Part shown: piece by piece, positions 1 through 391 of the stretch
Layout: each line of letters begins with the position of its first letter
Numbering within the stretch: the stretch's first letter is position 1
DNA from: Escherichia coli
GTDB taxonomy: Bacteria > Pseudomonadota > Gammaproteobacteria > Enterobacterales > Enterobacteriaceae
DNA: 391 bases
Direction: 5' to 3' (one strand)
Assembly (NCBI RefSeq): GCF_003334815.1
Contig: NZ_QOWO01000131.1
Notes under the pieces: model-generated
What the model saw: the letters and a program-made list of their open reading frames with translations, nothing else
What the model was told of the DNA's origin: nothing
Databases searched by the model: none
Made by a program: the position numbers and the translations under genes

Positions 1-75
1 CGCGAGGCATCGTCTTAACGAGGCACCGAGGCGTCGCATTCTTCAGATGGTTCAACCCTTAAGTTAGCGCTTATG
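1..75. mobile_element. Terminus of an IS186-like insertion sequence (IS4 family); element body extends beyond the window start
   Basis: + strand 53..75 reads CAACCCTTAAGTTAGCGCTTATG, whose reverse complement CATAAGCGCTAACTTAAGGGTTG matches the IS186 terminal inverted repeat as I recall it. The adjacent flank (minus strand GGGGGTAAAACC) fits the G-run/A-T core/C-run targets IS186 prefers. The boundary at 75 is approximate to about 1 bp. Identification is from memory and was not searched. Confidence 0.6.
53..75. repeat. 23-bp terminal inverted repeat of the IS186-like element
   Basis: Sequence CAACCCTTAAGTTAGCGCTTATG ends at the junction with the toxin-side flank. The second copy of the inverted repeat would lie at the other end of the element, outside the window. 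Confidence 0.55.
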
Positions 76-96
76 GGTTTTACCCCCGCGTGGTGG

Positions 97-249
97 CTAC
101 TTCTTCGATTCGTAAGCGAGAACTGCCTTAAACTCCATACCACGTTCTCTGATACTCAACTCACACAACGAGTCGCCTACCATCAGCGTGAATCCCAGTA
201 CTGTAAAACACAGCACTATGATTGCCACAAGGGCATATTTTGTCAGCAT
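97..249 (-). CDS. hokE: Hok/Gef family type I toxin (HokE-like small membrane toxin), 50 aa
   Basis: Minus-strand ATG at 249..247 is preceded by GGAGG (260..256) with a 6-nt spacer; 50 sense codons run to TAG (99..97). Translation: [50 protein letters not shown]. It has an N-terminal hydrophobic transmembrane stretch ([19 protein letters not shown]), then the conserved D-S-L-C-E block and C-terminal A-Y-E-S motif typical of Hok/Gef toxins. Closest to E. coli HokE by recollection, but not identical to the sequence I remember, so the paralogue and strain are unverified. Confidence 0.9.
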
Positions 250-252
250 GTC

Positions 253-281
253 TTGCCTCCCTGCAAAGAAGAGACTAACAT
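253..281 (+). promoter_or_regulatory. Candidate sigma70 promoter for an antisense Sok-like RNA (-35 TTGCCT 253..258, 17-bp spacer, -10 TAACAT 276..281)
   Basis: Both hexamers match consensus 4/6 with optimal 17-bp spacing. The -35 overlaps the toxin RBS on the opposite strand, which is the arrangement I recall for the plasmid R1 sok promoter relative to the hok RBS. Predicted transcription start is near 288..289. Confidence 0.35.
256..260 (-). promoter_or_regulatory. Shine-Dalgarno sequence (GGAGG) for the hok-like toxin
   Basis: Minus-strand GGAGG lies 6 nt upstream of the toxin ATG (sequence gcagGGAGGcaagacATG). Confidence 0.7.
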
Positions 282-287
282 TCGAAT

Positions 288-391
288 TGTTTGGGTTCGA
301 ACGTAAGCCTCAGGTTGTACTGACCCCAAAAAGTTGGACAGTTAAACACGAGGCATATAGGTCTGATTCCGATATTCAATTGGAGTCAGAC
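288..391 (+). ncRNA. sokE: Candidate Sok-like antisense RNA (antitoxin), complementary to the toxin mRNA leader; 3' end not defined
   Basis: Inferred from the candidate promoter and hok/sok locus architecture. The transcript would be antisense to the toxin leader and could end at the 361..391 stem-loop, but no U-tract is visible because the window ends there. Extent is speculative. Confidence 0.25.
361..391. repeat. Inverted repeat forming a 10-bp stem with 11-nt loop (GTCTGATTCC / GGAGTCAGAC)
   Basis: 361..370 pairs with 382..391. On the + strand RNA there is one G-U wobble; on the minus-strand RNA one A-C mismatch. It lies in the toxin mRNA leader and the candidate antisense RNA region. 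The window ends at the stem, so downstream context is unseen. Confidence 0.6.

Follow-up and report, generated by a model that had tools for sequence, protein, structure and literature searches.

The window, by which we mean the whole 391-nucleotide stretch of Escherichia coli DNA analyzed here, carries an intact 50-codon open reading frame (ORF) on its minus strand, enclosed by the right ends of two insertion sequences (Table 1). The sequence is 100% identical to positions 2774120..2774510 of the genome of E. coli B REL606 (NC_012967.1), and likewise to ATCC 8739 and others. The gene order in REL606 is cysD, iap, a CRISPR array, an IS421-family (IS186-like) transposase, hok, the IS150 transposase, and cysH. 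Strain 1943 and the O157 strain AR-0430 have the same gene in the cas3-cysH intergenic region without any insertion sequence, and strain 602354 has only an IS186-like element at the hok locus. The K-12 annotation places the sokX small RNA in this same cas3-cysH interval; cysH and cas3 themselves are read from the other strand.

Position beside cysH, within the cysH-cas3/iap interval, and identity to the E. coli B allele assign the window to a locus that is already known and annotated: its gene is hokX of the chromosomal hokX/sokX type I toxin-antitoxin locus, which most E. coli have between cysH and cas3 (or iap). The original description of hokX is reportedly that of Pedersen and Gerdes in 1999. 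In the literature, the hok gene at the cysH site goes by the name “hokX”; E. coli B is where it was first identified, in a form that an insertion element had inactivated (PMC7232551). Of the strains in a uropathogenic collection, 90% have hok and sokX beside cysH, and K-12 has just the latter (PMC12736100). Furthermore, hokX/sokX has been given as a toxin-antitoxin pair (PMC11598369). A real gene, annotated in RefSeq and named in the literature, hokX belongs to the best-studied family of type I toxins. An earlier sequence-only reading of this DNA had called it a member of a known family and not a novel system, in line with the RefSeq product name and the published hokX/sokX module. Absent from that reading was the extent of the locus: by alignment and exact boundary searches, DNA of the hok locus occupies only positions 76..315 of the window.

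Table 1. Features of the 391-nt window, in order of position
Feature	Position	Strand	Remarks
IS186/IS421 (IS4-family) right end	1..75	+	Boundary ambiguous by one base (74 or 75)
Tracked 77-aa ORF	73..306	+	Longest ORF in the window
GC-rich hairpin remnant 3' of the hok stop	76..96	-	5' arm and loop only; from alignment with uninterrupted loci
hokX toxin ORF	97..249	-	ATG start, 50 codons plus TAG stop; intact
Remnant of mok-like overlapping frame	243..315	-	3' 73 nt of 105 nt; junction fixed by alignment
Putative sok promoter	253..281	+	-35 TTGCCT (253..258), 17-nt spacer, -10 TAACAT (276..281)
hok Shine-Dalgarno GGAGG	256..260	-	6 nt before the ATG; read directly; invariant in orthologs
Antisense-target stem-loop of the hok leader	271..311	-	Kept whole; Rfam RF01794 consensus structure and minimum free energy (MFE) fold of 225-315 (-)
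SokX antisense RNA gene, first 27 of 59 nt	289..315	+	K-12 sokX annotation and sequence, fold, alignments
IS150 target-site duplication GGT	313..315	.	3 bp; flanks both ends of the 1,443-bp element
IS150 right end	316..391	-	Terminal repeat from TGTACTG at 316; RefSeq annotation, alignment, boundary search

Reading frame and family of the toxin

The sequence-only reading had proposed a 50-codon minus-strand ORF with a GGAGG ribosome-binding site at good spacing, and both are in place: the ATG-initiated frame was found where it was described, and GGAGG (260..256) is separated from the ATG (249..247) by the 6-nt spacer CAAGAC. It had also held that the gene was missed by the ORF track, which is correct for the track shown, where the tracked ORF is indeed the 77-aa plus-strand frame, but not for RefSeq, which annotates the coding sequence as WP_000956460.1, “Hok/Gef family protein.”

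The peptide has the architecture of a Hok protein, with 50 aa, a single N-terminal transmembrane helix predicted from hydropathy, and a polar C-terminal half. Its highest Kyte-Doolittle 19-residue window covers hydrophobic residues 6 to 24 (mean, 2.78), in agreement with the single N-terminal helix claimed earlier, and the DSLCE and AYES motifs named with it were read directly at residues 26 to 30 and 45 to 48. Direct reading also gives Cys14 and Cys29, the latter within DSLCE. The sole amino-acid difference among the orthologs examined falls in the transmembrane helix, at residue 15 (codon 207-205, minus strand), which is Phe15 in the E. coli B allele and Cys15 in strain 1943 and O157. Strain 602354, in which IS186 is present and IS150 is absent, has an identical ORF.

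The earlier reading had named the Hok/Gef family and called for a profile check, which returned a full-length match to Pfam HOK_GEF (PF01848.21; E value, 3.5e-11; 43.0 bits), with residues 5 to 46 aligned to model positions 1 to 42 of 42. Two NCBIfam models scored under their curated cut-offs, namely, the HokA equivalog NF007290 (E value, 9e-16; 57.7 bits against a cut-off of 89) and the Hok subfamily NF007279 (E value, 1.3e-10; 41 bits against a cut-off of 73). These E values still indicate homology to Hok at the level of sequence. Because the scores lie under the cut-offs, we take the protein not to be a HokA ortholog and to fall beyond the trusted range of NF007279; we assigned it to no named Hok equivalog, and the family assignment therefore rests on the Pfam match, the comparison with paralogs, and the RefSeq name. 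Identity is 78% to the annotated HokE and 42 to 59%, over the full length, to plasmid Hok/Gef proteins.

Length alone carries no information on whether such a frame is a gene, since 32% of mononucleotide shuffles of the window hold an ATG ORF of at least 50 codons, so that the length of the minus-strand ORF is not beyond chance. What raises this ORF above chance is the combination of the full-length Pfam match, the identity to HokE, and the pattern of substitutions among orthologs. Two orthologs, those of strain 1943 and O157 AR-0430, served for comparison with the window, and we pooled the codon changes over the pairwise comparisons. Read in the hok frame, 14 changes were synonymous and 2 were non-synonymous; read as codons of the tracked 77-aa ORF, the same comparisons gave 0 synonymous and 16 non-synonymous changes. 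We see next to no chance that the 77-aa ORF is the real gene and the minus-strand ORF its fortuitous shadow. Its greater length is the point in its favor, against which stand the 16 of 16 pooled differences that alter the encoded residue, the outcome of the NCBIfam protein-family search, which gave no meaningful match (best E value, 0.048; 12 bits), and a start codon supplied by the IS186 terminus; in loci free of insertion sequences, the same antisense frame starts with GTG and has 88 aa. On these comparisons, the coding strand is the minus strand and the hok ORF is the gene, with the 77-aa frame as its shadow ORF. The identification of the minus-strand ORF as a Hok/Gef-family type I toxin gene is supported by the same sequence comparisons, and toxin activity is predicted from the family.

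Insertion sequences on either side of hokX

A 23-bp terminal inverted repeat of IS186/IS421, CATAAGCGCTAACTTAAGGGTTG, is found at 53..75 of the window as its reverse complement. The same repeat is exact at both ends of a 1,339-bp element in REL606 (L001 2737..4075) that holds an annotated IS421-family transposase, and in genomes without IS186 the match to the window begins only at 75. The last bases of the terminus (…CTTATG) make up the ATG of the 77-aa plus-strand ORF (73..75).

The insertion point of IS186 is inside a hairpin, 21 to 22 nt past the hok stop codon. In uninterrupted loci, this hairpin stands directly 3' of the stop codon and reads CGCGGGGG-TAAAA-CCCCGCG. The hairpin that was hit has the form GGGG-N6-CCCC, which is the preferred target of IS186. 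By flank comparison, positions 76..85 of the window (GGTTTTACCC) are the sequence that IS186 duplicated in strain 602354, where the target-site duplication measures 10 to 12 bp (L003 1697-1737) and cas3 is still there. For REL606, comparison of the IS186 flanks (L001 2697-2737 and 4075-4085) revealed no target-site duplication; at its far side, the element borders on a type I-E CRISPR repeat, after which comes GGGGAAAAACCC. Because no duplication is present and the far flank is a CRISPR repeat, we consider that REL606 underwent an IS-associated deletion. The flanking sequences point to an IS186-associated event that removed the cas operon, from cas3 to cas2, together with the hok 3' untranslated region (UTR) and its fbi end, from E. 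coli B.

On the other side of the gene, IS150 went in by simple insertion at a point 66 nt upstream of the hok ATG. Of its transposase gene, which runs in the same direction as hok, the window includes the 3' end, with the final 16 codons and a TAA stop (344..342). Inside this 3' end, and reaching the edge of the window, is a perfect 13-bp hairpin (361-391, plus strand; GTCTGATTCCGAT-ATTCA-ATTGGAGTCAGAC, with G-U pairs), which dominates the fold of 289..391 (z = -6.55). Recurrent IS150 insertions have been reported in the regulatory regions of other hok/sok loci in descendants of REL606 (PMC5419217).

RNA control elements, intact and interrupted

The uninterrupted ortholog, which in strain 1943 occupies L002 2958..3325, provides the reference against which the window can be read. 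It matches Rfam RF01794 over the full model (positions 1-157) with 113 bits, against a threshold of 59, and has a mok-like frame of 34 codons with an ATG preceded by GAGG (L002 3169..3273, minus strand, in strain 1943). In uninterrupted orthologs, this frame has its own start and a TGA stop that overlaps the hok ATG, and it is expected to be translationally coupled to hok; the 34-aa Mok peptide had no meaningful match in NCBIfam. In the MFE structure of the predicted 368-nt RNA (-130 kcal/mol, z = -3.4), the 5' segment GGGUGC..GAGGCU pairs with the 3' end, which consists of GGUCUCCUGCACCC and then a U-run, and this 5'-3' pairing is predicted to be a closure of the tac-fbi type. The complete SokX folds into a 5' region and a terminator hairpin with a U-tract. 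We infer both the sok promoter and the tac/fbi pairing from homology and folding. The promoter was placed by homology, with the annotated 5' end of K-12 sokX corresponding to G289 of the window; a consensus scan was silent on it because only 8 of 12 consensus positions are matched.

The Rfam model calls for care in the choice of strand. The match of RF01794, the “sok antitoxin,” is to the mRNA leader in the hok sense and runs as far as an AUG (L002 3160-3317, minus strand), and the annotated K-12 sokX is on the strand opposite to the RF01794 match (L006 854-912, plus strand). The strand of an RF01794 match is therefore not to be read as that of the antitoxin.

In the hok/sok paradigm of plasmid R1, the full-length mRNA is inert and is activated by 3' trimming, Sok blocks the translation of mok and hok, and Hok is lethal through damage to the inner membrane. 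Steps of the scheme that follows for which the orthologs offer no evidence of their own are drawn from this paradigm. At an intact hokX locus, a transcript of ~368 nt would begin ~160 nt upstream of hok, and its tac-like 5' end (GGGUGCUUGAGGC) would pair with the fbi-like 3' end described above, which would hold the mRNA inert. Trimming from the 3' end would then let the leader refold and the mRNA become active. Translation of Hok would depend on translation of the overlapping 34-codon mok frame, and the 59-nt antisense SokX would block translation of mok, and hence of hok, and would mark the mRNA for cleavage or degradation. Once made, the 50-aa Hok would place its single N-terminal helix in the inner membrane, and membrane integrity would collapse.

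In the present copy, IS150 parts hok from its promoter, from tac, and from the mok start with its Shine-Dalgarno sequence, and splits the sokX terminator; IS186/IS421 interrupts the 3' hairpin, and the deletion deduced for REL606 has taken the fbi end along with the cas operon. The alignments show in detail what is left. The mok remnant keeps its TGA stop (245..243), which overlaps the hok start (ATGCTGA). The mok ATG, the GAGG Shine-Dalgarno sequence, and the first ~10.7 codons lie beyond IS150, which cuts the frame in its 11th codon, so that the window holds no mok frame with a start of its own that is coupled to hok. The antisense-target stem-loop of the leader is complementary to the 5' part of SokX. 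SokX itself is cut by IS150 after nucleotide 27, between the two arms of its terminator hairpin, and the 3' arm and U-tract are pushed 1.44 kb away; of a complete Sok gene, the window retains the putative promoter and nucleotides 1-27 of 59. The hok promoter, tac, and fbi are absent from the window, as judged by alignment and flank comparison, and a consensus promoter and terminator scan of the window found no hok promoter-like site and no terminator-like site. The single minus-strand promoter match of that scan, at 246..218 inside the ORF, is no better than chance. Folding of the truncated leader, examined around the hok Shine-Dalgarno sequence, gave a z of -1.84.

The window scores 41.6 bits against RF01794, under the gathering threshold of 59, in a 5'-truncated match. 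This “sok” match spans 234..391, and comparison with the uninterrupted locus identifies its portion over 316..391 as IS150 sequence, a spurious extension that we rejected. Matches in the window to the Rfam families mir-101 (E value, 0.54) and Ocean-VII (E value, 0.66) were dismissed as chance. The TAA stop of the IS150 transposase (344..342) shares its reading frame with the mok remnant. A 28-codon ORF with a TTG start (329..243) extends from within the IS150 terminal repeat to the mok stop that overlaps the hok ATG.

The sequence-only reading had added that a cis-encoded antisense RNA normally restrains toxins of this kind. This stands as a general remark and fails for the present copy, given that SokX is severed by IS150 after 27 of its 59 nt. 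That the window is nonetheless a complete, working hok/sok module, with the toxin checked by an intact cis antisense RNA, strikes us as highly improbable. The hok ORF, its Shine-Dalgarno sequence, the antisense-target stem-loop, and the putative sok promoter are all present, and the uninterrupted ortholog has every canonical element; yet IS150 lies within the leader, mok, and the sok terminator, and IS186 lies within the 3' hairpin. The RF01794 score falls from 113 bits in the ortholog to a value under the threshold, part of it over IS150, and the hokX of E. coli B has been published as inactivated by an insertion element (PMC7232551).

We are confident that the window represents hokX of E. 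coli B, dismantled by IS150 and IS186/IS421, with an intact ORF that is most likely silent and has no toxin-antitoxin function. As no native promoter, translational coupling, or complete antitoxin is left, the module would most likely be silent and non-working. This reading agrees with the published account of hokX in E. coli B (PMC7232551) and with precedents from K-12 (PMC2654758).

Could the two insertion sequences have rewired the pair instead of silencing it? In such an arrangement, transcripts that read through from the IS150 transposase gene would express hok, and the surviving sok promoter would make a chimeric antisense RNA, longer than SokX, that extends into IS150 and can pair with those transcripts. 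The transposase gene shares its strand with hok and lies 92 nt from it, with no terminator-like site detected between them; the hok Shine-Dalgarno sequence and ORF are intact, the latter identical to that of strain 602354; the -35, -10, and +1 bases of sok are kept; and the predicted fold of the chimeric antisense RNA is stable (-40.6 kcal/mol, z = -6.55). We nevertheless regard this arrangement as unlikely. Most of the stability of that fold comes from the hairpin internal to IS150, and with the mok start the copy has lost the translational coupling that, under the R1 paradigm, hok normally needs. Moreover, transposase genes of the IS3 family are weakly expressed. A further proposal, that a single antisense RNA running from the sok promoter into the 3' end of IS150 damps both the toxin and the transposase, is one we would hold out little hope for; if true, it would tie the activity of IS150 to the toxin through a common antisense RNA.

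Under the preferred reading of a silent remnant, hokX shows that an intact toxin ORF is no guarantee that the toxin-antitoxin system around it is whole. IS186 and IS150 hem in the ORF of E. coli B (REL606 and ATCC 8739) on both sides, and the elements that control it at the RNA level are either divided or gone, so to score the present hokX copy as a functional hok/sok module would be wrong. The locus is a further case in which insertion sequences have hit the regulatory RNA elements of hok and spared the reading frame.

Distribution and related loci

We searched 5,426 complete E. coli genomes for the intact and interrupted forms of the locus. The uninterrupted 368-nt unit (at least 80% coverage in one place) is found in 4,147 of the 5,426, and the IS150 junction of the window is found in 120. 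An IS186 junction of the type seen in the window is present in at most 881 of the 5,426 genomes; the true number may be lower, since the IS186-hokC and IS186-hokE junctions of the paralogs can also reach 80% coverage and be counted.

The window does not differ from the E. coli B hokX allele. Compared with the common uninterrupted allele, it has IS150 in the leader, IS186 after the stop, and F15 in place of C15. The K-12 sokX (b4701) locus (L006 721-1078) is a mirror image of this decay: conservation extends through the promoter, leader, mok, and sokX as far as the hok ATG, beyond which the hok ORF and 3' UTR have been replaced or deleted.

With plasmid R1 hok/sok (parB), the window shares the protein family PF01848, and the uninterrupted hokX ortholog further shares the RNA architecture of R1, with an overlapping mok, an antisense Sok, an RF01794 leader, and 5'-3' closure. 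Unlike R1, the window copy is chromosomal and is without promoter, tac, mok start, Sok terminator, and fbi. We would not expect this copy to exert post-segregational killing, the activity that defines the R1 locus.

Pedersen and Gerdes are said to have described the IS-inactivated K-12 loci hokA, hokC, and hokE in 1999. The window shares their mode of decay, in which an insertion sequence lies near but outside the hok frame and destroys regulatory RNA elements (PMC2654758, PMC7232551). It is unlike them in being another paralog in another strain, in having two flanking insertion sequences, and in the additional deletion of downstream DNA. Positions 1..117 of the window, which cover the IS186 end and part of hok, are 90% identical to the K-12 hokC region.

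The closest named paralog is HokE, which is equal in length, identical at 39 of 50 residues, and similar in its layout of transmembrane helix, DSLCE, and AYE. The hokE gene differs in its chromosomal site, next to entD, and its DNA is ~85% identical to that of hokX. At the hokE locus of strain AR_0061 (L005 1400-1950), an IS186-like element and IS150 have landed at sites homologous to the ones occupied in the window: for IS186, the hairpin that follows the stop, and for IS150, to within ~1 nt, the sok terminator and leader. Given that hokX and hokE are only ~85% identical, the insertions in AR_0061 look like parallel events at equivalent sites.
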